A stretch of 32,000 nt of DNA from Fibrobacter succinogenes subsp. succinogenes S85 (GTDB lineage Bacteria > Fibrobacterota > Fibrobacteria > Fibrobacterales > Fibrobacteraceae): assembly GCF_000146505.1 (NCBI RefSeq), contig NC_017448.1, forward strand, positions 3,030,001 to 3,062,000. The letters are read 5' to 3'. The position numbers and the translations under genes are program-made. Below the pieces are notes generated by a model. It worked only from the letters and a program-made list of their open reading frames with translations. It did not search any database and was not told where the DNA came from. This document shows, in pieces, positions 3,464 through 24,374 of the stretch (positions are counted from its first letter, which is position 1; each line of letters starts with the position of its first letter).

Positions 3464-5938
3464 TTACAGCTTAATGCTGCACGGCTTGGCGTTCCAGATT
3501 TCTTCGGCGTACTGCTTGATGGTACGGTCGGAGCTGAACTTGCCCATACGAGCGACGTTGAGGATTGCCATTTCCGCCCAGTGCTTCTTGTCCTGGTAAG
3601 CATCGGCAACCTTCTTCTGCATATCCACATAGCTGCGGAAGTCTGCGCAGAGCATGTACGGGTCATGCGACAAGAGCTTTTCTGCAATGTGCTTGAAGGT
3701 TTCCGGATGATCCGGGCTGAAGAAGCCAGAAGTGATAAGGTCAATTACGCGGCGGAGATCGTCGTCATGTTCGTAGAAGTCGCGCGGACGGTAACCCTTA
3801 GCGAGAAGGTCCGTCACTTCTTCAACGGTGAGACCGAAGATGAAGATGTTGTCGTCACCGACTTCTTCCTTCATTTCCACGTTAGCGCCGTCGAGCGTAC
3901 CAATCGTGAGAGCGCCGTTCAAAGCAAACTTCATGTTACCCGTACCCGAAGCTTCGGTACCAGCGGTAGAAATCTGTTCGGAAAGGTCTGCGGCTGGGAT
4001 GATCTTTTCGGCGAAGGACACGCGGTAGTTCTCGAGGAACACCATCTTGAGCTTGCCCTTGCAATCCGGATCAGCGTCGATGATAGAAGCCACAGCGTTA
4101 GCAAGACGGATAATCTGCTTAGCCATCCAGTAACCCGGAGCGGACTTACCACCGATCATGATGGTGCGCGGCATGATTTCCTTGCCGTCCTTCACCTGGA
4201 TGTAAAGGTGGATGGCATGGAGAATGTTCAAGAGCTGGCGCTTGTATTCGTGAATACGCTTGACCTGCACGTCGAAGAACGTGTTCGTGTCGACATCGAC
4301 ATTCTGCGTTGCCTTGAGGTACTTGGCGAGGCGTTCCTTGTTCTGCTTCTTGACTTCCATGAATTTCTTCTGGAAATCGGCGTCCTTGGCGAACTTTTCG
4401 AGCTTCTTCAAATCGTCCAAATCCTTGACCCAGGATTCGCCAATCTTAGAAGTGATGAGTTCGGACATAGCCGGGTTAGCCTTGCGGACCCAACGACGCG
4501 GTGTCACGCCGTTTGTCTTGTTGTTGAACTTTTCAGGCCACAGTTCGTAGAAGTCTTTGAAGAGCGTGGTCTTGAGGAGGTCGGAGTGGAGTGCTGCTAC
4601 GCCGTTCACAGCAAAGGAACCCACGATGGAGAGGTATGCCATGCGGACCATCTTGCAGCCGCCTTCTTCGATAAGGCTCATGCGGGCGAGACGAGCGTTG
4701 TCGCCAGGCCACTTCATGGAAACCATGCGGAGGAAGCGGGCATTGATTTCGTAAATGATCTGGAGGTGACGCGGCAAGAGCTTTTCGAACAAGCTTACCG
4801 GCCACTTTTCAAGAGCTTCCGGCATGAGCGTGTGGTTCGTATAAGCGAACGTGTGCGTTACGATGTCCCAAGCTTCGTCCCATTCGAGGTTTTCGATGTC
4901 GAGGAGGATGCGCATCATTTCGGCGATAGAAATTGCCGGGTGCGTATCGTTCAACTGGATGGCGACCTTTTCCGGGAAGAGCTTCCAATCGTTGTTGTGG
5001 AGCTTCTTGAAGCGCTTGATGATGTCCTGCAAAGAAGCAGAGCAGAGGAAGTACTGCTGCTTGAGGCGGAGTTCCTTACCGTTCATGGAAGCGTCGTTCG
5101 GGTACAAGACCTTGGAAATCGTTTCGGAAAGTTCCATGTCCTGCACAGCGGCGATGTAGTCACCGTTGTTGAAGTAGCTAAGACCGAAGTCGTCAGCGGA
5201 CTTGGCGCTCCAGAGGCGGAGGTTGTTCACTGTGTTGTTCTTGTAACCCGGGATCGGCGTATCGTACGGGAGGGCCATCACGTAGTCCTTCGTTTCCCAG
5301 CGGTTGCGGAGGCGACCGTTTTCGTCCATCCAGCTGACCACGTAGCCGTAGAACGGCACCTTGATAGCGTTAGCCGGGCGGGCGATTTCCCACGGGTTCG
5401 GGAGGCGCAGCCAGTTATCCGGCTGTTCTTCCTGTTCGCCGTTCACAATCTTCTGGCTGAACATACCGTATTCGTAACGGATGCCCATACCGGTTGCCGG
5501 AAGTTCGAGCGTAGCCATGGAGTCGAGGAAGCAAGCTGCCAAACGGCCAAGACCGCCGTTGCCAAGCCCTGCGTCCACTTCCTGTTCGCGGAGTTCTTCG
5601 AGCGTCATGCCGATTTCGTCAAGAGCTTCCGTCACGGCGCTTTCGACGTCGAGGTTCAACACGGAGTTGCCGAGCGTACGGCCAATCAAAAATTCGAGAG
5701 AGAGGTAATAGACGCGCTTGACGTCTTTTTCGTAATAGGTGTTCTGCGTCTTGATCCAACGGTCAACAAGACGGTCACGCACGGCGTAAGCCACAGCGAG
5801 GAACTTTTCGTGGTCCGTCACCGTGTACTTGCTGCGGGCGAGCGTGTGGTGGATGTGGTCGGTAAATGCCTTGCGGAAGGCTTCCGCATCGGTACCGAGC
5901 ACGGTAATGTCACTTGCATTCTTGGTAGTTTTAGCCAT
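3464..5938 (-). CDS. glgP: glycogen/maltodextrin phosphorylase (GT35)
   Basis: 824 aa with LGNGGLGRLAACFLDS, NDTHPA and the PLP-lysine region EASGTGNMKFALNGALTIGTLDGANVE. Full length for the family. Confidence 0.95.
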   Translation of the reverse strand: MAKTTKNASDITVLGTDAEAFRKAFTDHIHHTLARSKYTVTDHEKFLAVAYAVRDRLVDRWIKTQNTYYEKDVKRVYYLSLEFLIGRTLGNSVLNLDVESAVTEALDEIGMTLEELREQEVDAGLGNGGLGRLAACFLDSMATLELPATGMGIRYEYGMFSQKIVNGEQEEQPDNWLRLPNPWEIARPANAIKVPFYGYVVSWMDENGRLRNRWETKDYVMALPYDTPIPGYKNNTVNNLRLWSAKSADDFGLSYFNNGDYIAAVQDMELSETISKVLYPNDASMNGKELRLKQQYFLCSASLQDIIKRFKKLHNNDWKLFPEKVAIQLNDTHPAISIAEMMRILLDIENLEWDEAWDIVTHTFAYTNHTLMPEALEKWPVSLFEKLLPRHLQIIYEINARFLRMVSMKWPGDNARLARMSLIEEGGCKMVRMAYLSIVGSFAVNGVAALHSDLLKTTLFKDFYELWPEKFNNKTNGVTPRRWVRKANPAMSELITSKIGESWVKDLDDLKKLEKFAKDADFQKKFMEVKKQNKERLAKYLKATQNVDVDTNTFFDVQVKRIHEYKRQLLNILHAIHLYIQVKDGKEIMPRTIMIGGKSAPGYWMAKQIIRLANAVASIIDADPDCKGKLKMVFLENYRVSFAEKIIPAADLSEQISTAGTEASGTGNMKFALNGALTIGTLDGANVEMKEEVGDDNIFIFGLTVEEVTDLLAKGYRPRDFYEHDDDLRRVIDLITSGFFSPDHPETFKHIAEKLLSHDPYMLCADFRSYVDMQKKVADAYQDKKHWAEMAILNVARMGKFSSDRTIKQYAEEIWNAKPCSIKL

Positions 5939-6065
5939 AAATCTAACCTGCCTGGTATTGTTTATTCAATCCAAGGAAAAGTTTAGAAATTTTTACGAGA
6001 TTTGCAATACGTTAATTCTGTAAACCACAGTTGTAAGCCTTTCCAGAATGTGTAAAGGATGTGGG

Positions 6066-7085
6066 CTATCGATGGGAGTATGTGCTGTATAGGAAACCTG
6101 AAAAATCGTATAGGCGATTGCGGAGCGAAATTGGCTTGATGACTGTGGCGCTGTCCGCGTACGAAAGAACCCAACGGTAAAGTAGTTCGTTTGCCTCGAC
6201 CTTCATCGTGACGCGTAATTGACCGTTTTTCAGCTCCTCGACTTTCATGGAACGGTGGAACGGCTTTTCATCAAGGTAGAATTTGGCGCTTGGGTCGAAA
6301 ATGATTTCGACATCTTCGGCTTTCGGATCTTGCGTGCCTAAAATAGCGGAACCGAGCATGACACGCTTGCGGAGTGTTTCGATAACTTTAGGATTTTCTT
6401 GGAATGTTTCTTTGGTGAGCTCGACGCTTTTGATGCGACGGAACTTGAGAACGTACGTCTTACCCGGATTGCTTTGCGATTCGCAGCCGATGTAAATCTC
6501 GTTTTGATAAATGATGATCATCAGCGGAATGCGCACTTTCTTTTCCACTTTTTCTGGGGTAGCGTATTCCACTAGAATTTTACGGTGATCGTGAATGGCT
6601 CGCAAAATGGTCTTGAGTTTGTCGCTCGCGTCTTCCTCGAAATTTGGTGGTGTTCCCATAAAGAGAATTTTTGTATTCAGAGCATCGGAAACTTGCTGGA
6701 GCGCTTTCCGTTCGCTTGCTGGCAGAGTCTTGTTGATCTTTTCAAGCAATGCGAAAATCAGTTCGCTTGTCGCGGGGTAGATGTTGGCAATGCGCTGCAA
6801 GAATACGAAATGCAGCATCGTGTTTTCAAAATTCGGGAACAGCAGGCGGTCTGCCGTCTTGATGGCGGACTGATAGGCGAATGAACGCCCTTTGCCGTGC
6901 GTTTGTATGTACGCTCCGTTGTTCATGGACACGAGAAAGCTCATGTCGCGCTGCACATTGCGGCGTTCTCCCTCTGGAATCTGCAACACTTCCATCAAAT
7001 TACTGATGGAATAGCTCTTGTCTGGATTCGAAATCAAGTGAGCAAAAAGTTGAACAGTGCGTTCCCCGCGAGTTTTCTCTGCCAT
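6066..7085 (-). CDS. WYL-domain transcriptional regulator (wHTH-WYL-WCX architecture, BrxR/CapW-like)
   Basis: N-terminal wHTH-like segment (YSISNLMEVLQIPEGERRNVQRDMSFL). Central WYL-like core (KILVEYATPEK..VRIPLMIIIYQNEIYIGCES..KTYVLKFRRIKSVELTKETF). C-terminal WCX-like end (LLYRWVLSYADSATVIKPISLRNRL). An AGAGG RBS lies 9 nt after the rhuM stop, so the two genes are probably co-transcribed. Confidence 0.75.
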   Translation of the reverse strand: MAEKTRGERTVQLFAHLISNPDKSYSISNLMEVLQIPEGERRNVQRDMSFLVSMNNGAYIQTHGKGRSFAYQSAIKTADRLLFPNFENTMLHFVFLQRIANIYPATSELIFALLEKINKTLPASERKALQQVSDALNTKILFMGTPPNFEEDASDKLKTILRAIHDHRKILVEYATPEKVEKKVRIPLMIIIYQNEIYIGCESQSNPGKTYVLKFRRIKSVELTKETFQENPKVIETLRKRVMLGSAILGTQDPKAEDVEIIFDPSAKFYLDEKPFHRSMKVEELKNGQLRVTMKVEANELLYRWVLSYADSATVIKPISLRNRLYDFSGFLYSTYSHR

Positions 7086-7094
7086 AATAAACCT

Positions 7095-8093
7095 CTAAAT
7101 TTTGTTTGACAGCTTCTTCGTCTCTTCCAAGAACAGATCGAAATCGCTTTTCAAATTAGCCAATTCCTTTTGGCGGAAAAGCTTGTATTCATGTTCCGCT
7201 TTCTCCATAGCTTCGTCGTGGCTTATTTTGCCTTTGCCTTCCAAAATTTTCCGCTGGCTCATGATGATTTGATTGTCGAGAGCTTTAACCCAGTCCTGCA
7301 TTTTCATGGGCTTTTCATCCAAGGCTTGCAATTCGGCGAAATCAAGGAATTGCGATACCATCAGATTCAAACGCTGGAGTTCTTTTTCCGAAAGGTAGTT
7401 TTTTGCGATTTTTACATCGTCTTCTGTGATGTAGTCGCCCCTGAAATTTGTCATGCCAACGAATGGTTTCTCGCTGTCAACTCGCTCGTAGATAAGCTCT
7501 GCTGCGGTATGTTCGTGAACTGCGTAATGCAGTTTGTTTTGAACGGTAGCAAAGAAATCCTTCGTAATTTTTTTGCGGGGATCGTAGTCGATGGACGTTG
7601 CGTAGATGTCCGTGACTTGCTGATAGAAATTGCGTTCTGATGAACGGATGTCGCGGATTCTCTGCAAAAGTTCCTTGAAATAGCGGTTCCTGCCATTTTT
7701 GAGCCTTTCGTCGTCAAGGGAGAACCCCTTCTGGATGAATTCATGCAACCTTGCTGTGGCCCACCGTCTGAACCTTGTGGCAACAGGGGATTGGACACGA
7801 TAGCCGATGGCGATGATGACATCGAGGTTGTAATGAGCGATCTTTCGATGAACCTGTCGTTTCCCCTCTTGTTGAACTAACAAGAAATCCTTGTGAGTTG
7901 CCTCCTTGGGCAGTTCCTCGTCCTTGTATATGTTGTCGATGTGCAGGCTTATATTTTGCTGAGAGGTTTCATACAGCTCGGCTAGCTGAACCTGTGTCAC
8001 CCATACATCTTCGTCGGCAAAACGCACGGAAATATCTGTATTGCCGTCTTTGTCGTGGTAAAGCAGAAAAGTGTTTTCTAATTCGTTCTTCAT
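7095..8093 (-). CDS. RhuM-family protein (DNA-binding/virulence-associated family common in defence islands)
   Basis: From ATG 8093 (the track start at 8102 is a GTG). Contains ISVRFADEDVWVTQVQLAELYETSQQNISLHIDNIYKDEEL, HYNLDVIIAIGYRVQSPVATRFRRWATARLHEFIQKGF and LDDERLKNG, which match the RhuM family consensus from memory. Confidence 0.8.
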   Translation of the reverse strand: MKNELENTFLLYHDKDGNTDISVRFADEDVWVTQVQLAELYETSQQNISLHIDNIYKDEELPKEATHKDFLLVQQEGKRQVHRKIAHYNLDVIIAIGYRVQSPVATRFRRWATARLHEFIQKGFSLDDERLKNGRNRYFKELLQRIRDIRSSERNFYQQVTDIYATSIDYDPRKKITKDFFATVQNKLHYAVHEHTAAELIYERVDSEKPFVGMTNFRGDYITEDDVKIAKNYLSEKELQRLNLMVSQFLDFAELQALDEKPMKMQDWVKALDNQIIMSQRKILEGKGKISHDEAMEKAEHEYKLFRQKELANLKSDFDLFLEETKKLSNKI

Positions 8094-8103
8094 ACTGCAC
8101 AAA

Positions 8104-8131
8104 TATATACTGTAATGTTTGGCTCTGTCAA
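8104..8131 (-). promoter_or_regulatory. sigma70-like promoter candidate for the rhuM-WYL operon
   Basis: Minus strand reads TTGACA-16 nt-TATATA, ending about 10 nt upstream of ATG 8093. Confidence 0.3.
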
Positions 8132-8228
8132 GTCGATCCGTGTAATTTTTATAAAACTGCGTAAATGCTAGGTCACAAAATCAATTAAGTCCAAATACAT
8201 CATACGAGTTTTAAGAGATTGACATTCA

Positions 8229-8393
8229 TCAATGTGGAAAGCTTCTTTTCCCCAAAAGTTGCTTGGAATAGAGATAGGCGTCATTTTTGAAAAAATCGTC
8301 TAAATCGCTATCGCCACATTGAAACGAAGAAAGGTCTGTTTTACTATCGATGGGGTAGATTGTGCAATCAGATGCTAAAAGGATTCTTTCCAT
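8229..8393 (-). pseudogene. truncated N-terminal fragment of a GNAT-type (TacT/KacT-like) toxin, with an overlapping short RHH-like antitoxin remnant upstream
   Basis: The 54-aa ORF MERILLASDCTIYPIDSKTDLSSFQCGDSDLDDFFKNDAYLYSKQLLGKRSFPH* carries the F-x-CG-x3-LDxF motif that opens GNAT toxins, then stops before any acetyl-CoA binding core. A 34-codon frame (..NFAQIDEMVARTHSYQEAHNGKNPFSI*) overlaps its start in typical TA geometry. TTGACT-17-TAAATT lies upstream at about 8480-8510. Confidence 0.35.
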
Positions 8394-8639
8394 TATGAGC
8401 CTCTTGATAAGAATGGGTACGAGCGACCATTTCGTCGATTTGGGCGAAATTCAAGAGCCATAACTCCTCCACAATTTAGATTTATTTAGAGTTATAGTCA
8501 ACATCGGTTAATTCTCCTTTCCCCGCGGACACGCAAAAACAGCGAGGCTTTAAAAACTATAAAATGCTCATATGAGCACTAGAAAATATAAATCCGTAAA
8601 TAGCGATTGTCAAGAGCCGCGAAAAAAAATTCCCTATAC

Positions 8640-8670
8640 TCAAATTACGACATTATTTGTCGCAGTAAAA
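8640..8670 (+). repeat. 31-nt element TCAAATTACGACATTATTTGTCGCAGTAAAA, left copy; candidate operator/promoter-proximal element 51 nt upstream of ATG 8722
   Basis: Perfect reverse complement of 17712-17742. Contains an internal dyad CGACA-TTATT-TGTCG. It is followed by GAAGAATAACAA, which resembles GAGATATAACAA after the other copy. Confidence 0.6.
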
Positions 8671-8721
8671 TAGTAATTTTGAAGAATAACAATTTTACGA
8701 GAAAAACATAAAAGAGGCTTT

Positions 8722-9381
8722 ATGAGAGGACGTTACATCTATCAATTGGCGGCGACAATCCTGCCGAACGGCTTAGGGCGCGAAACGGTCGTGCACGACT
8801 TGGGTATTTTCACATCGCTTCGCACCGCCGAAAAAATTATGCGCGAGTATGTCACGGAGGGCAACTTCTATTGCCCCGTCTACAGTTTTTCCATCATGTT
8901 CCTACCGGTGAACGATGATTTGGAATATCAGTCTGAACGCCAAATCAATATCTATTCGCCTGCGGGTGAATTGCAAATTTCGGAATTCAACATGATTTCT
9001 TGCAATGGCGCTTGGAGTAACCGAATGAATATTGACATCAGAGCCATCATTGATATTGGACCGTTTAAAAAGCCGTATTTTGTTCTGTACAATCATTGGC
9101 GTCGTGGGCTTGCGACCAAGTGCGCCCGCATTTCTTTTTTGGAGCCTAAATACGAACTGGGCGCGTCGTACAACAAATCGGTTTGGTTCCTGGATGAAAA
9201 TGAGAAAAAGATGCTCGTCAGGTTTTTGAAAGCGGGGAAACATTCTCCGCATGAAGCTGAACCCTCAAATAATTGGCGACTTGCCATCGGAGCCTTCAAC
9301 AACGAAGTCCGAAACGATGACGATAGTCGCATTTTGCCTTATGACCTCCCGATTCCTGACTACACAAAACTGGAGCCGTGA
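8722..9381 (+). CDS. hypothetical protein (219 aa), first gene of the plus-strand string
   Basis: ORF with RBS AAGAGG 5 nt upstream of the ATG. No motif I recognise. Its stop overlaps the next start (GTGATGA). Confidence 0.6.
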   Translation: MRGRYIYQLAATILPNGLGRETVVHDLGIFTSLRTAEKIMREYVTEGNFYCPVYSFSIMFLPVNDDLEYQSERQINIYSPAGELQISEFNMISCNGAWSNRMNIDIRAIIDIGPFKKPYFVLYNHWRRGLATKCARISFLEPKYELGASYNKSVWFLDENEKKMLVRFLKAGKHSPHEAEPSNNWRLAIGAFNNEVRNDDDSRILPYDLPIPDYTKLEP

Positions 9382-10052
9382 TGACTAGAATTTTATCACG
9401 ACCCCCACGGTGGGACATCCTCGAAAAATTCTATCGTGTTTTTGATAAAGGCCGCAAACGCGGTTGCGTTGAACAGTGGCAAAAAGAAATGCCCAAAAAC
9501 CTTTTGGAACAGGAACTATTCGATACCAAAATACACATCGAATTCTTGACCGACCGTCGAGAAAAACTGAACAAGGAATTTCGCTGGACATTCGCAAACA
9601 TGAAAAAGCTAATCACGATGGACCAGCGCATCCGTGAACTCAACAACGAAATCAGCCGCACCTTCAATGCCACGAAAAAGGACATCGCCGGGCTCGTCGC
9701 GCAAAAACACGAGTGGTATAAAGAATACGAACTCGAAGCTGAAATTTGTCCCGCAAACGATTGGAGCATCGCCGGTGAACACGAATACATCAGCGATTTA
9801 CTTTTCTGGTATGTCAATTGGGATGCCATCAACATTCTTGCAAATACAAACGAAGATCATCACGAACGCCACAAGGCTTACAATGTTCCTGCCTGGAAGC
9901 AGATGATGCTTATAGACAAGTTTGTCGAAGACGGAGTTACTTGGGAACTCGATGCATTGCTTTACGACACTGATGCTAGCCTATACAGTTTCAAGGATGT
10001 CGTCCGATTCCGCCCAGAGCAATTTGAAGTGCGGTATAAGTTGAGCTTTTAA
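9378..10052 (+). CDS. hypothetical protein (224 aa), coiled-coil-rich middle
   Basis: ATGA overlap with the upstream ORF implies translational coupling. The central segment is heptad-like and charged (REKLNKEFRW...RIRELNNEISRTFNATKKDIAGLVAQKHEWYKEYELE). No recognisable catalytic motif. Confidence 0.6.
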   Translation: MMTRILSRPPRWDILEKFYRVFDKGRKRGCVEQWQKEMPKNLLEQELFDTKIHIEFLTDRREKLNKEFRWTFANMKKLITMDQRIRELNNEISRTFNATKKDIAGLVAQKHEWYKEYELEAEICPANDWSIAGEHEYISDLLFWYVNWDAINILANTNEDHHERHKAYNVPAWKQMMLIDKFVEDGVTWELDALLYDTDASLYSFKDVVRFRPEQFEVRYKLSF

Positions 10053-10076
10053 CATTAAAAAGGAGGCTGCTTCGTT

Positions 10077-11132
10077 ATGAAAAAGGCGAGAAGATTGCTT
10101 GATGAATTCTTGGAGAATAACAAGAATTTATTTAAACAGCATGATTTGGAAATTGATGCTGATGAAATACACGATGGTCAGCCTCAAAATGCTTATGCAT
10201 TTGTTGATGTCTTTGAAAAGTGCGATGAAAATAAAAATGGGTGGAATGTACATCCTTTCCCAGGACCGATTTGTTTAAGGATTGGATGTTGTGCGGCTGC
10301 AAATAATGGCTGTGGTTGCTTTTGCCTTTCGTTCTTTATCCCGATGGCGCTTGTTGGGCGGATTCCCGAGAAAATGGTTGATTTGATAATCCCGCACAAT
10401 CCAGATAAATGGACTGAGAAAAAATGGAATGGGACAGATTCTATTTTGATTAAACCTGAGCATTTTCGGCAATTGACTCTTGAAACGATTGGAGTTCGTT
10501 TTGATGGATTGAACTATGATGAAAGCCAAGAAATTGAATCAGATGATGTTCAAAAAATGATTGTTGAGAAAACTGCGCAATTGGAAAATGGAACATCGTG
10601 GTTTTATTCCTATTTCTTTGACAAGAATGATGCAGAGAGTGTTTTCGAAGAGCTTTTTGATGACATTATGCCGATATTAGAAAGTAAAAATTCAGATTGG
10701 TATGAATGCGTTGCTGAAATCCAGGCTCGTCGAGGTCAAGGACTTTTTCGGCGTCAGATGATGAAATATTGGGAAAATAAATGTGCGTTTACGGGATGCG
10801 ATAATCCTGAATTGTTGGTAGCTTGTCACGCAAAGCCTTGTGCTGCGTGTGAGAATGTCGAGCAACGAATGAGTCCATATAACGGATTTTTGTTAAGGAC
10901 TGATATTGCTTATTTGTTTAATAAAGGGCTCATTACTTTTCTTGATTGCGGTCTTATAGTTATTTCTAAAAAGCTAAGCGACGAGGACCAGAAAGCTTTT
11001 GGACTTTATGGCGATATGTCTATTCGGAAACTTGATGAAAAAAATCGTGAGTTTTTGCATTACCACCAAAAATATGTTTGGCAAGATCGCGATAGGGGCG
11101 AGCTGATTTTGAAGATGAATGGGTATCTGTGA
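10077..11132 (+). CDS. HNH endonuclease (HNH_2-type C-terminal domain) with unknown Cys-rich N-terminal domain
   Basis: RBS AAAGGAGG lies upstream. The C-terminus has RRGQGLFRRQMMKYWENKCAFTGC..LLVACHAKP...NGFLLRTDIAYLFNKGLITF, the pattern of stand-alone HNH nucleases of the PF13391 type. The N-terminal ~220 aa are unassigned (CLRIGCCAAANNGCGCFC). Confidence 0.75.
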   Translation: MKKARRLLDEFLENNKNLFKQHDLEIDADEIHDGQPQNAYAFVDVFEKCDENKNGWNVHPFPGPICLRIGCCAAANNGCGCFCLSFFIPMALVGRIPEKMVDLIIPHNPDKWTEKKWNGTDSILIKPEHFRQLTLETIGVRFDGLNYDESQEIESDDVQKMIVEKTAQLENGTSWFYSYFFDKNDAESVFEELFDDIMPILESKNSDWYECVAEIQARRGQGLFRRQMMKYWENKCAFTGCDNPELLVACHAKPCAACENVEQRMSPYNGFLLRTDIAYLFNKGLITFLDCGLIVISKKLSDEDQKAFGLYGDMSIRKLDEKNREFLHYHQKYVWQDRDRGELILKMNGYL

Positions 11133-11218
11133 TTCTATGTTGGAATAAGAATTACTGAATTTTGAAGGAAAATGAGTATAGATTTAAAGGAGGTGTATAA
11201 TCTAAAGAAGGGGAAAAT

Positions 11219-12595
11219 ATGTTTTATAGCAATAAATTACATAACAAGTCTAATATACAAAAATTGACTTTAGATGAACTTGTTAATCGATTGTCTTGTA
11301 AATCGGATGTCTTTGTCGTATCCTGTTTTTATGGTTTGGACACTATCCAAAATTTTTTTGATAAAATGTATGATTGTGGAAGACAAGGTCGCTCAACAAC
11401 CGTAATTGTTAGTTCGCAGGGTAGTTCCACAGATCGATTAATTTCAATTTTAAAAGATTTAACACGCGTTAAATTACATCAAACGCAGAAATTATATGTT
11501 TATGAAAATTCTTCTTTACTCCACACAAAATTATACCTATCAATGGATTCTAATGTTTCAAAAAACACATGTTGTTTAGTTGGTAGCCTGAATCTAAGTG
11601 ATAATGCTTTTTCTTCAAATGAGGAAATTTTAGTTGATATTGCAGAAACCAAAGACAAAAAAGCAGCAAGTGATTACATAGATTCCATTCTTTATGAAAA
11701 TGACAAAAGTTTGATAGATGTAAAAGAGTTGCAGAACGAAATGAAAGGCATAAAGGATATAGATGCTTTTTTAAAAGCTAAATATGCGAAGAAATGTGAG
11801 GCTATTTTCAATGGCACATTAAAAGATTTTATTGGTAATGGTTATATATTTTTTAAAGCGCAACGAAACTTTTCGCTGACATATCCCCAAAAATCATTAT
11901 GGGATAATTGGCTTTCAAATATTGACCCGCAAAGCAGGAAAAATCTTATTCCTAATACGAAGAATCCTCGATTAAATGTTTATGATTTACTAGGAATCAA
12001 TGAAGAAATTGATGAAGCTGATACTATCTATATAAAGCAAAATTCGGTTGAAACCAATTTGGGCTATTGGGTGCCCACAGGGAAAAGACATGATTTTATT
12101 CAAGAAACTATAAATAAGATTACGGATCAACGAAAAGAGAGGTATGATAGTATTAATAATATTCTAATTCAAAATAGAGAAAATCTTTCAAATGATACTT
12201 CAAAAAGACTAAAGGATTCTTTTGATAGATTAAATATGTTGTTGACAGAAGATAAAAAGCTCAAAGAAAATGATTTTGACGAGTTAAAAGAAGAATTCTG
12301 TCGTTTTATCCGTGAAAAATCAATGTGGTTCGAAAAAGGTGAAAATAAGGAATTGTATAAGCAAAACGGAATATATTTTAACCCTATGCCTAATTTTTGG
12401 GATGATATTCCTGCTGTAAAAGAGTTTAGAGAAAGCTTTTTTGATGATATAAAATTAAGACATTCAAAAAACGGGAAAAAGATTGTTGATGTTTTGTTTG
12501 AATATTTTGAAATGGAAAAAGGTGAGGTGAATTTAAATAAAAAATTGGGCGAATGGAAGAAAATAGATGAGGAATCCTTTAAACCTAAAGGTTAA
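11219..12595 (+). CDS. phospholipase-D-superfamily nuclease-like protein (single HKD, NgoFVII/BfiI/Nuc-like N-domain) with long K/E/N-rich helical C-terminal region
   Basis: LLHTKLYLSMD...CCLVGSLNLSDNAF gives HxK...D...GSxN, a single HKD motif at about residue 100. The remaining ~300 aa are low-complexity helical. The gene is very AT-rich. Confidence 0.6.
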   Translation: MFYSNKLHNKSNIQKLTLDELVNRLSCKSDVFVVSCFYGLDTIQNFFDKMYDCGRQGRSTTVIVSSQGSSTDRLISILKDLTRVKLHQTQKLYVYENSSLLHTKLYLSMDSNVSKNTCCLVGSLNLSDNAFSSNEEILVDIAETKDKKAASDYIDSILYENDKSLIDVKELQNEMKGIKDIDAFLKAKYAKKCEAIFNGTLKDFIGNGYIFFKAQRNFSLTYPQKSLWDNWLSNIDPQSRKNLIPNTKNPRLNVYDLLGINEEIDEADTIYIKQNSVETNLGYWVPTGKRHDFIQETINKITDQRKERYDSINNILIQNRENLSNDTSKRLKDSFDRLNMLLTEDKKLKENDFDELKEEFCRFIREKSMWFEKGENKELYKQNGIYFNPMPNFWDDIPAVKEFRESFFDDIKLRHSKNGKKIVDVLFEYFEMEKGEVNLNKKLGEWKKIDEESFKPKG

Positions 12596-12603
12596 ATTTT
12601 GCC

Positions 12604-13182
12604 GTGAATAAGAAAAATCAATTTGAATTCCGACCGCAAATAGCGGGGTACGATTGTGCCCCGACAGCTTTTATTAACGCTTTAATCTATTTATTTAAGC
12701 GTGAAGAAATTCCTATAGATGTTGTGCAAGGAATTTATAAAATTACTTTGAATGGGGGCTTATACCATGGATCTTCGGAAAAGGATATCGCAAAACTTTC
12801 AAAGTGGCTTAAGGATTATCGCAGAAAAGACTGGAGTTTTGCAGTTGATATAGATCGTCAAGTTGGGAGAATAGCGAACTTTGACAAAATTGATTTAGAA
12901 GATGAAAACGTATGTTGTATTTTACATGTGAAAATAGCTGGTGGGTACTGGCATTATATTACAGCCTTTTACGAAAAGGGCGACTATATTTATTGTTATG
13001 ATCCTTATTTTGAAGAAGAAAAAGAAACTCGTAATTGGCGTTCAAAGAAAATGAGAAATGGCTGTAATTTGAAAGTTAAAAGAGAATATCTATTTGCAGA
13101 AAAAGATAGCGGCGTTTATCGAACTGGGTTATCTAAGAATCGCGAGTTCATTTTAATAAAAAGGATTAAACCCGCGAAATAA
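12604..13182 (+). CDS. papain-fold cysteine peptidase-like protein (C39-like)
   Basis: GTG start 8 nt after the PLD gene stop. GYDCAPTAFINALIYLF is a candidate nucleophile Cys at a helix N-terminus. GGYWHYITAF is a candidate His and CYDPYF a candidate Asp/Asn. Order and spacing fit Peptidase_C39-like folds. Confidence 0.45.
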   Translation: MNKKNQFEFRPQIAGYDCAPTAFINALIYLFKREEIPIDVVQGIYKITLNGGLYHGSSEKDIAKLSKWLKDYRRKDWSFAVDIDRQVGRIANFDKIDLEDENVCCILHVKIAGGYWHYITAFYEKGDYIYCYDPYFEEEKETRNWRSKKMRNGCNLKVKREYLFAEKDSGVYRTGLSKNREFILIKRIKPAK

Positions 13183-13202
13183 ATTCTCCGCCATTCTAAT
13201 CT

Positions 13203-13811
13203 ATGCAAGAACAGACCTCCAAATTTATCAAATCCAAATCCGAAACCTGCTGTGATTTCTGGCAATCGCTTGTTAAAAAGATTTATGCCCCAAATGCTGA
13301 TGTGATTTTCCTGCATAGAAGGGATGTTCTTGCTGCTTTTAAACGCTTGCAAAAAGCGAAGCCAAATTACGGGTTTGAAATTTCTTATAAGCAAGAATCA
13401 AAGGGGTATCGGAATTGCGATAAGTCGCAAGTTGTTTGCTTGCGCAAGTCTTTGGGTAGTGCCGCTTCAATTGAATTCCTGGTAGATTGTGATGCTAAAT
13501 ATTTGAGCATTCGTTTTTCACATATTGACGCAGGGAAATTTAATGTTTCGTATGAACGCTGCTGGTGTAATCTTGAAGCGACTCTTGAAAACCTTGTGAA
13601 GTTCGTTGATGAATTCACGAATTATAACGAGCAATCGTCAAGAATTATAATGGAAATCGAAAAAGATTATACCATTCAAATGTCTTTTGATATTCAAAAC
13701 TATCTTGAGCAAATCCCGGCGTTGCAAAATGTTCTGAAGCAAACGGAAAACTTCTTAAAAGAAATTCCGTTCCCAATATCTATTAAGGCTCTTGACAAGA
13801 GTCGTTTTTGA
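13203..13811 (+). CDS. hypothetical protein (202 aa)
   Basis: ORF 20 nt after the peptidase gene on the same strand. No recognisable motif. Confidence 0.5.
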   Translation: MQEQTSKFIKSKSETCCDFWQSLVKKIYAPNADVIFLHRRDVLAAFKRLQKAKPNYGFEISYKQESKGYRNCDKSQVVCLRKSLGSAASIEFLVDCDAKYLSIRFSHIDAGKFNVSYERCWCNLEATLENLVKFVDEFTNYNEQSSRIIMEIEKDYTIQMSFDIQNYLEQIPALQNVLKQTENFLKEIPFPISIKALDKSRF

Positions 13812-13875
13812 ATTTATATTGTTGGTGAACAAATGTGTAATCCTGTCTTTTTTGCTTGTAGATGGGAAGGAGTAA

Positions 13876-14904
13876 ATGATGAAAAATGATGTCCCGGCAG
13901 TTGCCAAGTCTGAATTTTCCCTGATAGACGAAAATATGCTTAAATCGCGAATCTACACGATTCGTGGTCTCAAAGTCATGCTTGATGCTGACTTGGCGGA
14001 GATTTATGGGTATAGTACGAAGGCTTTTAATCAACAGATTAAGAATAATATCGAAAAATTCGATGAAGATTTTCGCTTTCAGCTGAATTTTGGGGAAATT
14101 GAAGAACTTTCAAGGTGCAAAATTTGCACCATGAACATGGAAACCGAAAATAAGGAACCTTCAAGGTCAAAATTTTTGACCTTGAACAAGGGCTCTCGCG
14201 GTTCAAATGTCAAGTATGCTCCTTACGCTTTTACCGAGCAAGGCATTTATATGCTTATGACTGTTCTCAAGGGCGAACGGGCGACGGCACAAAGCAAGGC
14301 TCTTATCCGCCTTTTCAAGCAGATGAAAGACTATATCATTGCTGAAAATCGGAATTTGTTGAGTAATGAAGGCCTAGTTCAAATAGCCATGCAAACGGAA
14401 TGGAATACCAAGGATATTGCCGTCATTCAGTCCGACTTGCAGAAGGTCATGGAAAATTTTGTTGATCCTTCTACCTACAAGCATTTCTTGATTTTGAATG
14501 GAAAAAAGTTGGAAGCGGATGTTGCTTATACGCAAATTTATGGCATGGCAAAGAAATCCATCGCCATTATTGACGATTATGTTGGCGTGAAAACGCTCGA
14601 TCTTTTGCGAGGAATTGCCAAGGGCGTTTCTGTGACAATTTATAGCGATGAACAAGGATTTGAATCGCTGGCAGATCAAATTAAGAATGATTTCTCGGCG
14701 GCTCGCCCTGATGTAAAGCTCTTCACGGATCGGACAAGGGGTAAAATCCATGACCGCTATATTTTTCTGGATTACGGCTTAAAAGGTGAAAAGCTTTTTC
14801 ACTGTGGTGCTTCATCTAAAGATGCTGGTAACAAAATTACTACCATCATGCAGATTGAGAATACTGAAATTTACCACATATTGATGGATAAATTAAAAAG
14901 ATAA
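13876..14904 (+). CDS. ORF6N (KilA-N-like) DNA-binding domain protein with C-terminal PLD-like HDR domain
   Basis: N-terminus has IYTIRGLKVMLDADLAEIYGYSTKAFNQQIKNNIEKFDEDFRFQL and APYAFTEQGIYMLMTVLKGERA (ORF6N family). C-terminus has KIHDRYIFLDYG..LFHCGASSKDAGNK, matching the HDRF-x-IID...GASLKDLGKK tail seen in this protein family. Confidence 0.75.
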   Translation: MMKNDVPAVAKSEFSLIDENMLKSRIYTIRGLKVMLDADLAEIYGYSTKAFNQQIKNNIEKFDEDFRFQLNFGEIEELSRCKICTMNMETENKEPSRSKFLTLNKGSRGSNVKYAPYAFTEQGIYMLMTVLKGERATAQSKALIRLFKQMKDYIIAENRNLLSNEGLVQIAMQTEWNTKDIAVIQSDLQKVMENFVDPSTYKHFLILNGKKLEADVAYTQIYGMAKKSIAIIDDYVGVKTLDLLRGIAKGVSVTIYSDEQGFESLADQIKNDFSAARPDVKLFTDRTRGKIHDRYIFLDYGLKGEKLFHCGASSKDAGNKITTIMQIENTEIYHILMDKLKR

Positions 14905-14906
14905 CA

Positions 14907-15314
14907 TTACCCTCTTATCAAAACAAATGGTTTACCCATTTCCTTTATACGCTTGAGGTTTTCTGCTGTGCCTTTGCTTTTTCCATCCCAAATCATAAGA
15001 GCTTGGTCACAATCTTTTGCCATTTGAACGTCTTTCACATAGTGAAAGGCGCGGCCGGTAAGGCCTTTGGCCGCTTCGGCGCATGAGTGGATTTTTGCGG
15101 ATGATGTAAAATTGTTTCTCGGGTTGACTCCGCTACAATAAACGGTTATATTGCTGAAACTCTTGGATTCAAGGTGCTTTTGTACGACGGCATCAACCCC
15201 GTAGCAATCACCGATAAGAATTTCATCGTTGTTTTCGATGAATTGGTCGATGAATATTTTTGCCAATTCAGGCAACTTTGAAATGGATTTTGATCCGGAT
15301 ATAAATATTTTCAT
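14907..15314 (-). CDS. small SLOG-superfamily Rossmann-like protein (DUF2493/YspA/DprA-like pattern)
   Basis: 135 aa. KIFISGSKSI, ILIGDCYGVDAVVQKHL, ITVYCSG and ALMIWDGKSKGTAENLKRIKEMGKPFVLI follow the GxR / GxxxGxD / xGSxGT layout of DUF2493- and DprA-type SLOG domains. RBS AAGAGG is present, 35 nt downstream of the AAA gene stop. Confidence 0.5.
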   Translation of the reverse strand: MKIFISGSKSISKLPELAKIFIDQFIENNDEILIGDCYGVDAVVQKHLESKSFSNITVYCSGVNPRNNFTSSAKIHSCAEAAKGLTGRAFHYVKDVQMAKDCDQALMIWDGKSKGTAENLKRIKEMGKPFVLIRG

Positions 15315-15349
15315 AGCGCCTCTTTATAGAAATTTTTTTCTCATATCAG

Positions 15350-17674
15350 TTATAACCCCATTCTGCGTCCTTCGCGAGTGTCCTTGCATTCGATTTCGTG
15401 GCGCAGTGCTTGCAGAATGTTTTCGGCGGAGATTTCGCTTTCGTCATAATAGCGGAATGATCCATAGACTGCGTTGAAATCGCCTGGTGCGAGTGATTTT
15501 AGCTCGCGAGCGGCGGCGGGGCATTCGACTTTCGGGAAAAACGCTTGCCATACTTTTTCGATTCCCTCTGGCTGCAAGTAGTTGAATTTTATCTTCAATG
15601 CGAATCGCCTGCGTGAAGCTGAGTCTAAATTATTGTTGAAGTTTGTTGCCGCAATGAAGATTCCCTTGAAGTTTTCCATTTGCGTTAATAGCTCGTTTAC
15701 TTGCGTTACTTCCCACCTGTGTTCGGCTCCGCCACGTTCCTGTAGAAAACTGTCCGCTTCATCTAAGAAAAGGATGGCTTTCTTTTCTTCGGCTTCATGG
15801 AACATTGCTCGAATGTTTTGCTCGGTTCCGCCAACGAAACAATCTAAAATTTCACTAGCTCGTTTTACAATGAGTTTACGGTCGAGAGTCCTTGCAATGT
15901 GCTTTGCGAGTTCTGTTTTGCCAGTACCGGGAGCTCCGTAGAATAGAGTGTTCAAGGATTCGGGACAGTCGTAATCATTGAAGTCTTTCCATTTGTCGTT
16001 GAATGAATTGATGACTTTCATGACTTTACTCATGTCGGTATCGATGTTCAGAGCATCTAAAATGTAATTGGGTGCATGGGTGTCTCTATCTCGATGAACA
16101 TATTCTCGCGAGAGTGATAGTAAATTGGATTGAGCTTCTGCTATAATGCGTACTGCTTTTTCGGGAGGAGTCTTGCTACCTTTCTCTTGCAGATGTTTTG
16201 CGCCTGCAATGGCCTGCGTGATACCGCCTGCGGTAATAGAAAGCTCGGATGCTAGTTGTTGAACGAATTTGTGTGACAACATGTTTTTTGCATCTTGCTC
16301 GCTAATGACAGATTCCCAGATTTCCATTCGTTTTTCGGAATCAAGCCTTTCAAATTCTATGGAATAATCGAATCTGCGACGTGTACTATTTTCGATATAT
16401 CTGATATTGTTTGAAATCCAAATGACGGGTACTTTGATTTGCTCCAAGAAAAAGTTAAGCGCTCCTTTTTCACAAAAATTCAGGATGATGTCGGCTTCAT
16501 CTACCAAGAGAATTGCACGCTTGTTTTGGTATTTGGTTGCTGCATACAAGATGCTTCCCATGCGTTCTTGGATGGAAGTGCTTTCTTTTGATTCTCTGTT
16601 TACGCCATCAATGCTTGTGTTGGTAAGGACTAACGGTCGCTTAAGTTCTTTGGCTATCGCTTTGGCGAGTTCCGTTTTGCCGGTTCCTTCGACTCCATAT
16701 AAGAAAATATTGATACCTTGGCCGATATCTACATGCTTGAGCATGTCGTATGCCATTTCGATTTTTGGGTTTTTGTTGCACAGCTTTTTATAGGGGACTG
16801 AATTGCCTTCGTAGACTTTGAAATAGAGAGAATCTAAGTCGCTGCCTGATGTCCCGTCTAGAAAGAGCGCTATTCGTTCGGATGTGTCGAGGTCGTTGTG
16901 GAGAATCCCCATCCGCTTGAGTGTTGATTTGTTCAAAATTGCGTTTTCTATTTGAAGTTCAGGATATAGCGTAGTAAATGTGTTTGCGTAATTTGATTCA
17001 TAGTGTCTATTGGATTCGACTATATTACGGAGGGCGCTGCATGTTTCTTTGTTGCGGAAAATCCATGCAAATATGAGAATTTCCATTTCTGTTGGATTGA
17101 GGTTGAACGATTTTTGTATGATGTCAAGACGTTTTTGATAGGGGTCGTCAAAAGAACTCGTTGTTTTGAGAATTTTTAACATTTCCTTTGAAATCCCATC
17201 GAAGAAAATCTTTTGGGCCGGAGCGTTGAAAATATCTTCGCCGTCAAGGTTTTGACCTGTGACATTTCGGATTGCGTCGATAGAGCTGTTGTTTTTGAGA
17301 ACTTCTCTAATTTTTGTTATTGTTTTCTGACGATCTTGGTAAAGTTCTGATTTGTCGGATTCTTCGACGTCGAATAGCTTGTTGTCAATTCTGATTTTTC
17401 TCTTATGGGAAGACTGCTTTGGGCTTTTTGGATGTTTATCTTCATCGTTGTTTTTTTGCTTAAAATGTTTAGCGAGTCTCTCTAAAATGCGTGAGGCGTT
17501 TTCTTTCGGAAGAATGGCGATGCTGTCTGATGCGTCTGGATATTTTTTTGTGCATCGAAGCATGCGAATCCAGTATTCGTAGCTCTTGAGCGTGATGAAA
17601 TTTAGGCCGATTAGTCTGTTTTCGGTTCTTTTTTGTAACGCCTTGCAAACTTTCTTGAAGTAATCTTTTTTCAT
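15350..17674 (-). CDS. tandem classical AAA+ ATPase (two AAA modules) with ~320-aa unknown N-terminal region
   Basis: D1 has GVEGTGKT (Walker A), AILLVDEAD (Walker B), WISNN and STRRRF. D2 has GAPGTGKT, AILFLDEADSF, FIAATNFNNNLDSASRRRF (sensor-1 and SRH arginines). The D2 context ASEILDCFVGGTEQNIRAMF is typical of the classical AAA clade. Confidence 0.85.
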   Translation of the reverse strand: MKKDYFKKVCKALQKRTENRLIGLNFITLKSYEYWIRMLRCTKKYPDASDSIAILPKENASRILERLAKHFKQKNNDEDKHPKSPKQSSHKRKIRIDNKLFDVEESDKSELYQDRQKTITKIREVLKNNSSIDAIRNVTGQNLDGEDIFNAPAQKIFFDGISKEMLKILKTTSSFDDPYQKRLDIIQKSFNLNPTEMEILIFAWIFRNKETCSALRNIVESNRHYESNYANTFTTLYPELQIENAILNKSTLKRMGILHNDLDTSERIALFLDGTSGSDLDSLYFKVYEGNSVPYKKLCNKNPKIEMAYDMLKHVDIGQGINIFLYGVEGTGKTELAKAIAKELKRPLVLTNTSIDGVNRESKESTSIQERMGSILYAATKYQNKRAILLVDEADIILNFCEKGALNFFLEQIKVPVIWISNNIRYIENSTRRRFDYSIEFERLDSEKRMEIWESVISEQDAKNMLSHKFVQQLASELSITAGGITQAIAGAKHLQEKGSKTPPEKAVRIIAEAQSNLLSLSREYVHRDRDTHAPNYILDALNIDTDMSKVMKVINSFNDKWKDFNDYDCPESLNTLFYGAPGTGKTELAKHIARTLDRKLIVKRASEILDCFVGGTEQNIRAMFHEAEEKKAILFLDEADSFLQERGGAEHRWEVTQVNELLTQMENFKGIFIAATNFNNNLDSASRRRFALKIKFNYLQPEGIEKVWQAFFPKVECPAAARELKSLAPGDFNAVYGSFRYYDESEISAENILQALRHEIECKDTREGRRMGL

Positions 17675-17711
17675 GTTTCACTCTCATTTTGTTATATCTC
17701 TAAAAATAGAT

Positions 17712-17742
17712 TTTTACTGCGACAAATAATGTCGTAATTTGA
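17712..17742 (-). repeat. 31-nt element, right copy (minus strand reads TCAAATTACGACATTATTTGTCGCAGTAAAA); 37 nt upstream of ATG 17674
   Basis: Perfect inverted copy of 8640-8670, in the same orientation relative to its downstream gene. Confidence 0.6.
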
Positions 17743-17747
17743 AGAAA

Positions 17748-17783
17748 GTGAAAAAAGGCAGTCCGCACTTGCGAGCTGCCTTT
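17748..17783 (-). terminator. Rho-independent terminator of the GNAT gene
   Basis: Minus strand has AAAGGCAG-14 nt loop-CTGCCTTT followed by TTTTT, starting 5 nt after the GNAT stop. It abuts the right 31-nt element and marks the island edge. Confidence 0.6.
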
Positions 17784-23520: not shown

Positions 23521-23529
23521 TTGTTTTAG

Positions 23530-23602
<73 letters not shown>

Positions 23603-23614
23603 GAGGACAGCCCA

Positions 23615-23643
23615 TATATAGAAATAAAATTTGTAGTTATAAA
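23615..23643 (-). promoter_or_regulatory. promoter candidate for tRNA-Gly copy 1
   Basis: Minus strand has TTTATA-17 nt-TATATA, ending 12 nt upstream of the tRNA 5' end. The same arrangement recurs upstream of copy 2. Confidence 0.4.
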
Positions 23644-23782
23644 GGGGTGAGTGCCGAAAAAAGTGAAATTTTTTTGAGAGTTCCGAAAGAATTTGGTCGC
23701 ACCCTCTCCCCCGAGGGGTCTCGGGTCCTCGTTCAGCATCTGACTACAAAACAAAAAAGGCGCTTTGCAGCGACTTTTTTTT

Positions 23783-23935
23783 AGAGCGAGAATGTCAAAG
23801 TCCAGTCCCCGCTTCGCGGCTGGACTTTGCCCCTTCGGGCTTGCACTCACTGCGTTCGCGTCAAGCGCAAAATTTGTCTCTTCGCACTTCGTGCATCTCG
23901 TTGTTTAGTCGGCCCCTCTTCTCGGGTCCTCGTCC
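23783..23935 (-). ncRNA. repeat unit C2 (153 nt), B/C chimera, probably defective
   Basis: The 5' part is B-type (..GGGGCCGACTAAACAACGAG..) and the 3' part is C-type (..GACAAATTTTGCGCTTGACGCG..). The two strands of H1 therefore no longer pair. H3 (CAAAGTCCAG...CTGGACTTTG) is intact. Confidence 0.35.
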
Positions 23936-23955
23936 AGTTCAGTACATAAAACAAA

Positions 23956-23980
23956 AGAGCCTAGCTTGACGCTAGGCTCT
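23956..23980 (-). terminator. Rho-independent terminator after tRNA-Gly copy 2
   Basis: Identical hairpin and T-run to those at 23496-23520. Confidence 0.6.
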
Positions 23981-23989
23981 TTGTTTTAG

Positions 23990-24062
<73 letters not shown>

Positions 24063-24140
24063 GAGGGTAGCCCATATATAGAAATAAAATTTGTAGTTAT
24101 AAAGGGGTGAGTGCCGAAAAAGTGAAATTTTTTTTGTTTA

Positions 24141-24320: not shown

Positions 24321-24340
24321 AGTTCAGTACATAAAACAAA

Positions 24341-24364: not shown

Positions 24365-24374
24365 TTTGTTTTAG

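Follow-up and report, generated by a model that had tools for sequence, protein, structure and literature searches.

The closest described counterparts of the element analyzed here are the binding sites of bacterial WYL-domain activators. DdaA of Acinetobacter and other Moraxellaceae recognizes CGWCA-N5-TGWCG (PMC12392091), with CGACAATATGTGTCG and CGTCATGTTATGTCG as experimentally bound sites (PMC13010146), and work of 2025 on the Moraxellaceae described a WYL activator that controls damage-response as well as anti-phage genes through the same motif. The site of DriD in Caulobacter crescentus is ATACGAC(N7)GTCGTAT, in which CGxC(N7)GxCG and an AT-rich spacer are conserved (PMC10853764), and in an "optimised -35" didA construct TTGACA was put into the spacer of the box, at a distance of 17 nt from the -10 (PMC13004042). 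PafBC of the Actinobacteria acts at the -26 element of the RecA-NDp promoter, tGTCgg(N10)tA(N3)T (PMC8635444). Here, we analyzed a 32,000-nt stretch of Fibrobacter succinogenes S85 (CP001792.1), hereafter the window, in which two convergent gene strings are each headed by the same 31-nt element: a plus-strand string that opens with gene A and a minus-strand string in which a tandem AAA ATPase gene is followed by a SLOG-like gene. A sequence-only reading of the window had taken the pair for a duplicated operator of a dimeric repressor, controlling seven plus-strand and two minus-strand genes as one system. We consider it probable instead that each 31-mer is the upstream half of a promoter and the docking site for a DNA-damage-sensing WYL activator of the DriD/DdaA type, which would switch on the two facing operons.

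The element, TCAAATTACGACATTATTTGTCGCAGTAAAA, occurs as two perfect copies in opposite orientation, and the window contains no third copy even at up to 3 mismatches; 100 dinucleotide shuffles returned 0 matches. The two promoters and the regulator proposed to read them comprise the following features.

8640..8670, plus strand: 31-mer copy 1, upstream of gene A; a perfect match, with 0 expected by chance
17712..17742, minus strand: 31-mer copy 2, heading the AAA gene; begins about 9 nt in from the right island edge, just past the GNAT terminator
8648..8662, plus strand: WYL box copy 1, CGACATTATTTGTCG (CGNC-N7-GNCG, AT-rich spacer), followed by a conserved CAGT; motif match to the DdaA/DriD consensus
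17720..17734, minus strand: WYL box copy 2, with the same CGACA-N5-TGTCG dyad
8674..8679, plus strand: predicted -10 hexamer TAATTT, 11 nt past GTCG, from the spacer scan and invariant columns
17703..17708, minus strand (read 17708-17703): predicted -10 hexamer TATTTT, 11 nt past GTCG, from the spacer scan
6066..7085, minus strand: regulator with winged helix-turn-helix (wHTH), three-helix bundle, WYL and WCX parts, proposed binder of both boxes (Pfam, PADLOC, fold search)

Each copy is oriented toward the gene downstream of it, with 51 nt between copy 1 and ATG 8722 of gene A and 37 nt between copy 2 and ATG 17674 of the AAA gene, and the gapless likeness between the copies reaches 56 nt at 82%. 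The sequence-only reading had given the copies, distances and shared orientation correctly, had noted that the likeness continues toward the genes, and had recognized an internal dyad with the symmetry of a dimeric helix-turn-helix site; its view of the element as a duplicated cis-regulatory site heading both strings also stands. Within the window, the dyad CGACA-N5-TGTCG is found in two places only, both inside the 31-mers. The CGACA-TTATT-TGTCG core of both copies fits the pseudo-palindromic CGxC-N7-GxCG (CGWCA-N5-TGWCG) pattern with its AT-rich spacer, and Fibrobacter boxes such as CGTCAATATTTGTCG are nearly identical to the bound DdaA sites CGACAATATGTGTCG and CGTCATGTTATGTCG.

The spacing of GTCG, 11 nt, and TAnnnT is exact in both copies, and the box occupies the -35 position upstream of the -10. 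No -35 element is recognizable at 16-18 nt from the -10 of the box promoters, where the hexamer is CATTAT. The organism does use -35 elements, because the same island contains three TTGACA-17/18-TATATT promoters, which are its three best promoter-like sites, intergenic or at a gene boundary and correctly oriented.

8102..8131, minus strand: sigma-70-type promoter TTGACA-18-TATATT for RhuM-WYL; 11/12 matches
8585..8613, minus strand: divergent sigma-70-type promoter TTGACA-17-TATATT, about 35 nt left of box 1; 11/12 matches
13792..13820, plus strand: sigma-70-type promoter TTGACA-17-TATATT for gene G; near-consensus and kept in 6 loci

The -10-like box proposed earlier, GAAGAATAACAA / GAGATATAACAA or (G)A(T)ATAACAA, did not survive comparison: it falls at the predicted start site, is without the T6 of a -10 and is conserved less than TAnnTT, and the invariant TAnnnT hexamer upstream of it (8674-8679 and 17708-17703) is better placed. 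Transcription of the gene A string would then start at about 8685-8687. At the copy-1 -10, TAATTTTG is also compatible with TAnnTTTG of the Fibrobacteres-Chlorobi-Bacteroidetes (FCB) type. A Bacteroidetes -33/-7 reading of the 31-mer (TTTG ... TAnnTTTG) was rejected, as its spacing of about 14 nt is too short for a -33; the -7-like box was kept only as a -10.

We searched for the composite motif in related Fibrobacter loci (loci are numbered with the prefix L). CGNC-N7-GNCG-N11-TANNNT has 23 matches in 284 kb of these loci, against 1.4 +/- 1.1 in dinucleotide shuffles, and no match in 95.6 kb of island-free loci. When the spacer was varied from N7 to N15 (306.5 kb, two loci added), matches numbered 0, 2, 3, 7, 26, 1, 4, 0, and 3, with the peak at N11. 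All sites are intergenic and each faces a downstream gene, mostly a homolog of the AAA ATPase, A, B, SLOG or WYL genes; the called start usually lies 25-80 nt from the -10, and at most about 150 nt (L083, 5906). The AAA ATPase gene is box-driven in L005, L008, L083, L084, L087, and L093. Across nine diverged, otherwise unalignable promoters, the only invariant positions are the box columns (C,G,-,C,A,-,T,A,-,T,T,G,T,C,G) and TA..TTT of the -10. Related islands at the same site carry the element at the same two positions with 1-3 substitutions outside CGNC/GNCG, and the sole half-site change among orthologous boxes is A to T at the tolerated third position. In L082 and L093, the box of the operon next to the WYL gene has a 24-nt core identical to that of S85. 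The element is not restricted to one locus but belongs to a promoter family spread across Fibrobacter islands. The 24-nt core, exact or degenerate, is absent from 185,579 species-representative genomes, of which S85 is not its species' representative; this absence argues against a dispersed repeat of the repetitive extragenic palindrome or miniature inverted-repeat transposable element (REP/MITE) type, and it does not prove the two-copy status in S85.

A pattern scan of metagenome contigs mixed true sites with chance matches from unrelated environments, and only clustered downstream genes were used. Among the matches listed, the commonest clustered downstream open reading frames (ORFs) encode the tandem AAA ATPase (at least 11), A (at least 6), WYL (at least 5 contigs, where the WYL gene lies under its own box), B (at least 3), and SLOG (at least 2). 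Also among them are at least 5 AAA proteins of 555 aa on low-GC contigs, preceded by a -10 that reads TAnnTTTG, like -7 elements of the Bacteroidetes type; members of the Fibrobacter-Bacteroidetes group may share the circuit. Sites of the TAnnTTTG type with the same box and 11-nt spacing precede 554-556-aa single-AAA proteins (L139, L143, L170, L196, L202) and 297-298-aa WYL-like genes (L096, L211) on low-GC metagenome contigs.

The WYL protein encoded at 6066-7085 is the obvious candidate for binding both boxes, a suggestion of the sequence-only reading to which the fold ranking and the linkage of boxes to WYL genes lend weight. Pfam detects WCX (4.5e-12, above the cut-off) and a weak WYL domain (E 7e-4, 19.9 bits against a 21.8-bit cut-off), and the PADLOC WYL model matches at 4e-21. 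A Foldseek search of the predicted structure against the PDB ranks DriD first (E 2e-14 to 5e-13), followed by PafBC (3e-11) and CapW/BrxR (2e-6 to 4e-5), which places the protein outside the repressor subgroup, with DriD about 8 orders of magnitude ahead of CapW/BrxR. Sequence-profile searches against the PDB find PafC weakly and DriD never, and the relation to DriD is resolved by the fold search alone. A three-helix linker is predicted at residues 86-137. R42, N43, Q45, and R46 of the recognition helix are invariant, and R42-x-x-Q45-R46 has the spacing of the base-reading R37-x-x-E40-R41 of DriD. By analogy with such regulators, we propose that the protein is a homodimer.

The genomic company of WYL homologs points the same way. 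The protein has 278 close homologs, and the few with a labeled source are from Fibrobacter; in four diverged lineages, box promoters always adjoin the WYL homolog, and in L082 and L093 the WYL gene lies under its own box. L083-L086 have an AAA gene and a WYL gene flanking a variable island with several boxes, divergent pairs included. L087-L090 have two divergent boxes, with a DNA polymerase III finger-domain gene on one side and AAA-WYL-recC-recB-recD on the other. The former (L087 6730-7458, minus strand, and likewise L088-L090) is box-driven and encodes a stand-alone 242-aa DNA polymerase III alpha finger domain (PF17657, E 2e-44).

In the mechanism we propose, the homodimeric WYL protein would bind the box, a pseudo-palindromic CG(A/T)CA-N5-TGTCG with a CAGT extension over the would-be -35, through two recognition-helix arginines. 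Once its WYL domains are loaded with ligand, the dimer would recruit RNA polymerase to a promoter that would otherwise not be recognizable, with the TAnnnT -10 following 11 nt on. As for the ligand, analogy with DriD, DdaA, and PafBC suggests single-stranded DNA (ssDNA) that arises when DNA is damaged or phages replicate; to our knowledge, ssDNA is the ligand of every characterized WYL member of this class, activator or repressor. The regulator would be made from the sigma-70-type promoters at 8613-8585 and 8131-8102, and one signal would reach both operons, A-B-(HNH-PLD-E)-F rightward and AAA-SLOG leftward, with gene G (ORF6N-PLD) expressed from a promoter of its own.

Several points weigh against an activator of this kind. 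The WYL regulators characterized beside defense genes, BrxR and CapW, are repressors (PMC9122601, PMC11662680). The S85 protein is only about 14% identical to DriD, its structural model is moderate (pLDDT 76, pTM 0.46) with low TM-scores (0.37), and the equivalence of the recognition helices is drawn from residue numbers rather than from a structural alignment. No box precedes the S85 WYL gene itself, which is 1.6 kb away from box 1. The -10 is placed by sequence comparison, and the copy count of the 31-mer in S85 refers to the window rather than to the whole chromosome. Finally, the 99 box-downstream ORFs of the metagenome matches listed include no recA, uvrA, or ssb, and because no classical damage-response gene is among them, the signal may not be DNA damage.

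The first of these points carries over into the repressor operator of the sequence-only reading, by which the WYL protein on the dyad would block RNA polymerase in unstressed cells until a ligand released it, as with BrxR and CapW. We regard this as unlikely, although WYL regulators beside defense islands are known to repress via inverted repeats (PMC9122601, PMC11662680), a protein bound at the box could occlude polymerase, as the box overlaps the core promoter, and an 11-5-11 reading of the element pairs 7/11 positions, the geometry of the BrxR R-box (PMC9122601). We ranked repression below activation on the grounds that a promoter subject to repression should be self-sufficient and that geometry and fold ranking favor activators. 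The box promoters have no -35 to give them strength of their own, yet consensus -35/-10 promoters are found elsewhere in the island, and an inverted repeat over or downstream of a complete promoter, the BrxR/CapW arrangement, is not what the box promoters display. The box sequence, its place at the -35 and its spacing to the -10 are instead those of activators, as is the fold, by the margin given above.

Both box promoters lie in an accessory island of lower GC content (30-45% from about 6 to 17.8 kb, against about 50% in the flanks). To compare the site, we took the orthologous GNAT gene from species-representative genomes. S85 carries an 11.7-kb insertion, because GNAT adjoins glgP directly in five relatives, all Fibrobacter genomes. 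On the right, the island ends just past the conserved terminator of GNAT, with about 9 nt between this edge and copy 2, and on the left it ends just past the WYL stop codon. Apart from the features already listed, the island contains the following, with gene x from related loci appended.

6056..17750 (approximate, 11.7 kb), no strand: accessory island between glgP and the GNAT gene; empty sites in L002, L004, L007, L009, L023
7095..8093, minus strand: RhuM-family gene, co-transcribed with WYL; Virulence_RhuM, PADLOC PDC-S05 (E 8.5e-142)
8722..9381, plus strand: gene A, 219 aa, no named family; conserved box-driven gene
9378..10052, plus strand: gene B, 224 aa, no named family; conserved partner of A
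10077..11132, plus strand: HNH_2 nuclease, variable cargo; Pfam 5.5e-9; absent or replaced in L008 and L093
11219..12595, plus strand: PLD-family protein, variable cargo; PLDc_2 1.7e-9; in L003, not in L008 or L091
12604..13182, plus strand: gene E, cargo, 192 aa, likeness to papain/C39 confined to motifs; no library match; only where this PLD occurs
13203..13811, plus strand: gene F, 202 aa, no named family; conserved upstream partner of G
13876..14904, plus strand: gene G, ORF6N with PLD-like C terminus, PADLOC candidate PDC-S05; ORF6N 4e-28, PADLOC 1.8e-100
14907..15314, minus strand: SLOG/DprA-like small protein, second gene of the minus operon; pLDDT 88.6, Foldseek, 418 Fibrobacter homologs
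15350..17674, minus strand: tandem AAA+ ATPase with a unique 300-aa N-terminal region; Pfam AAA 4e-42; most frequent box target
Gene x in relatives: L008 11354-12007; L005 13372-14529; L091 8196-9347; L003 4609-5217

The earlier gene calls agree with ours, and Pfam bears out HNH_2, PLDc_2, ORF6N, and tandem AAA. The label "SLOG-like" is confirmed by fold, with ShosA, YpsA, and DprA as the top Foldseek matches, MCP, LOG, and TRPM N-domains also found, and TMq of about 0.72, up to 0.73. For the supposed Cys peptidase at 12604-13182 there is no library match. Genes A, E, F, SLOG, and the hydrolase-like x have no match in Pfam, NCBIfam, or PADLOC, and the Pfam and PADLOC matches of gene B are weak and below threshold. 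A homology search with the N-terminal region of the AAA ATPase found 10 matches, all fragmentary. The sequence-only reading had also matched the gene set to no named system. The defining features of IetAS and Shosta are lacking, but G and the RhuM-family gene both match the PADLOC candidate PDC-S05.

We then compared the two strings across related loci. L003, L008, and L091 have the convergent two-string layout at the same site as S85, and L093-L095 have it at a second chromosomal site beside feoAB, with protein identities of about 70%, so the co-occurrence of the strings that had been put forward as a check is found at both sites. At the feoAB site of L082, the layout is present in part (WYL, x, SLOG, G, F), with A and B not detected. 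The recurring genes of the layout loci are WYL, A, B, F, G, and SLOG (A and B not detected in L082) and usually AAA, which is missing from L003, L091, and L082. Gene G invariably faces SLOG, with F in front of it. Also usually found again is a 200-aa alpha/beta-hydrolase-like gene, x, with a GMSKG nucleophile elbow, which in relatives lies between AAA and SLOG and has been lost in S85; L005 carries it as a fusion with SLOG, L091 has an additional copy in fused form, and L003 keeps it without AAA. Between B and F, in turn, S85 has HNH-PLD-E, to which L003 adds a NOV_C-like nuclease; L008 has type III Mod-Res there, L091 has HNH genes, and L093 has HNH plus UDG.

These comparisons speak to whether all nine genes form one obligate multiprotein defense system, of which the shared element would be a mere reflection, an interpretation that we find improbable. 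In its favor, A, B, F, G, SLOG and usually AAA keep together at both the GNAT-glgP and feoAB sites in lineages about 70% identical. Against it, the middle of the plus string is swapped among HNH/PLD/E, a NOV_C-like nuclease, type III Mod-Res, and UDG with HNH, AAA is missing from L003 and L091 and x from S85, and G and RhuM match PDC-S05, a single-gene candidate. Gene G also has its own TTGACA-17-TATATT promoter, conserved in six loci, which removes it from the seven plus-strand genes once assigned to the box promoter, and the constant part of the supposed nine-gene system shrinks to A, B, F, G, SLOG, and usually AAA. Across loci, the gene content is thus that of a conserved regulon scaffold with room for exchangeable cargo rather than of a nine-gene machine of fixed make-up. 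More tentatively, and with considerable doubt, we suggest that the core (WYL, tandem AAA, alpha/beta-hydrolase-like, SLOG/DprA-like, A/B, F, and ORF6N-PLD) could make up a conflict or DNA-damage module, inducible and so far undescribed, that belongs to the Fibrobacter-Bacteroidetes lineage and is controlled by a DriD/DdaA-type activator; its A/B...F slot would put exchangeable nucleases and restriction systems under the same alarm signal.

Another factor might read the element with the WYL protein as a bystander, either an alternative sigma factor, with TGTCGCAGT as a -35-like sequence, or the ORF6N and RhuM proteins of the island. We hold this to be very unlikely. The promoter-proximal half of the box, TTGTCGCAGT, is indeed conserved more than the distal half, and ORF6N and RhuM genes also co-occur with boxes. 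However, the box agrees base for base with experimentally defined WYL sites, the promoters of WYL genes themselves contain it (L082, L093, and the metagenome contigs mentioned above), and L083-L090 have boxes in stretches where no ORF6N or RhuM gene was called. It is hardly credible that the inverted copies are not promoters but bound a 9.1-kb segment able to move or invert, as terminal inverted repeats or recombination sites, even though perfect inverted repeats bracket 9 kb and the right island edge is no more than about 10 nt from copy 2, because the left edge (about 6056) is 2.6 kb outside copy 1, gene calls, Pfam, and direct reading reveal no transposase, integrase, invertase, or target-site duplication in the island, single copies precede many unrelated genes at a fixed distance to the -10, and orthologous copies vary at non-core positions while the box is kept. 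Transposon or MITE terminal inverted repeats were rejected on the same observations. There is also no tRNA at the island ends, and Rfam identifies no known RNA in the island.

Several further observations concern individual genes of the island and their relatives. Two PDC-S05-type genes, G and the RhuM-family gene, are present together. Between the divergent promoter and RhuM, a 54-aa ORF (8229-8393, minus strand) is the truncated N terminus of a GNAT-like gene, of which L003 has an intact 199-aa version (13480-14079); the remnant resembles a decayed toxin-antitoxin-type gene, and a possible short ORF lies beside it (about 8397-8459, minus strand). Residues ~100-217 of A form a widespread domain of about 140 aa without a Pfam model, which occurs alone or fused to a PIF1 helicase or an FGE-sulfatase domain. 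The HNH-PLD gap (11133-11218) contains a perfect TATAAT preceded by TG (GGTGTATAATC) with no -35, which may be an internal promoter at the cargo junction; in L003, two extra genes are inserted at this junction. L083 encodes a 602-aa protein (3734-5542, minus strand) that combines PLD-like and C39-like peptidase parts and is not detectably homologous to S85 E, which hints that PLD and peptidase can act as one module.

Within 13792-13875, which holds the promoter and 5' leader of G, a hairpin in the leader (13841-13867) abuts the ribosome-binding site. Its stem has compensatory substitutions when S85-type loci are compared with those of the L093/L082 type, but by folding energy the hairpin is unremarkable (z = -0.43). 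Only 2 nt separate the stop codons of G (plus strand) and SLOG (minus strand) (14904-14907), and because there is no room for terminators between them, transcripts from the two sides must collide or overlap at this junction. The tight convergent junction is kept in all related loci, with a 17-nt overlap in L093. Elsewhere in the window, three tandem tRNA-Gly(GCC) genes (23529-24447, minus strand) lie in a repeated spacer of about 450 nt whose copy number differs among Fibrobacter genomes.

If the proposed activation holds, ssDNA-sensing WYL control in the style of DriD, DdaA, and PafBC, in which the regulator supplies the missing -35 contact, extends to the Fibrobacterota and, going by the metagenome matches, probably reaches Bacteroidetes-type promoters. 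The recognition sequence in Fibrobacter is almost unchanged from that in Proteobacteria. The signature CGNCA-N5-TGTCG-N11-TAnnnT is searchable and would point to inducible island genes in a rumen bacterium important for cellulose degradation, and it singles out the tandem AAA ATPase, the SLOG protein, A, and B as prime targets. The expected sign of regulation would likewise be corrected, from repression to activation. Without the WYL gene and an inducing signal both operons would probably be silent, so that a negative phage challenge of the cloned locus would be misleading.

We found no publication on this Fibrobacter circuit in the literature, and its parts resemble several known systems to different degrees. 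The C-terminal AAA module resembles IetA of Ietat (7e-46), but it scores 153 bits against the NCBIfam IteA cut-off of 510, the island has no IetS protease gene, and the S85 protein is a tandem AAA with a unique N-terminal region. Similarly, the best structural match of the SLOG protein is ShosA of Shosta, but the ShosT phosphoribosyltransferase is absent and the neighbor is instead the AAA ATPase in S85 and the alpha/beta-hydrolase-like gene in relatives. G (E 1.8e-100) and the RhuM-family gene (E 8.5e-142) match the models of PDC-S05, which is a computational candidate without a known mechanism, whereas in S85-type loci G has its set place, facing SLOG and following F. BrxR and CapW resemble the S85 case in being WYL regulators encoded within a defense-type island and in having a dyad site that occurs there more than once (PMC9122601, PMC11662680); however, their sites lie over or downstream of a complete promoter and repress it, whereas the S85 promoters have no -35 and activator-type spacing, and the likeness in fold is much weaker.

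The activators are closer. S85 has TGTCGC(N10)TAATTT where PafBC has its -26 element, neither promoter type has a -35, and an activator bridges promoter and polymerase in PafBC, as proposed for S85. PafBC is, however, a heterodimer that reads a non-palindromic half-site and does not bind DNA without polymerase, whereas S85 has a dyad of two half-sites and a single WYL gene. DriD shares CGxC-N7-GxCG with its AT-rich spacer, a box over the missing -35 and GTCG plus 11 nt to the -10, and it is the top structural match (E 2e-14), with a three-helix linker, predicted in S85, and a recognition helix that by residue numbers would have the common pattern R-x-x-(E/Q)-R. It differs in identity (about 14%), in E40, which would correspond to Q45, in the flank (TAT, against CAGT in S85), and in the content of its regulon. 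DdaA shares the site consensus, a wHTH-WYL-WCX regulator that is a homodimer (proposed here for S85), and the use of one regulator at several promoters, including restriction and defense loci. In contrast to DdaA, the S85 regulator belongs to the Fibrobacterota and is encoded on an accessory island; its predicted targets are the tandem AAA, SLOG, A, B, and nuclease cargo rather than recA, uvrA, and ssb, the CRISPR, restriction-modification, and Zorya loci of Acinetobacter are not among them, and the S85 case is known from sequence alone. The S85 circuit is thus a new example of a control already described, and what is new is the phylum, the accessory-island setting, and the mostly unknown targets.

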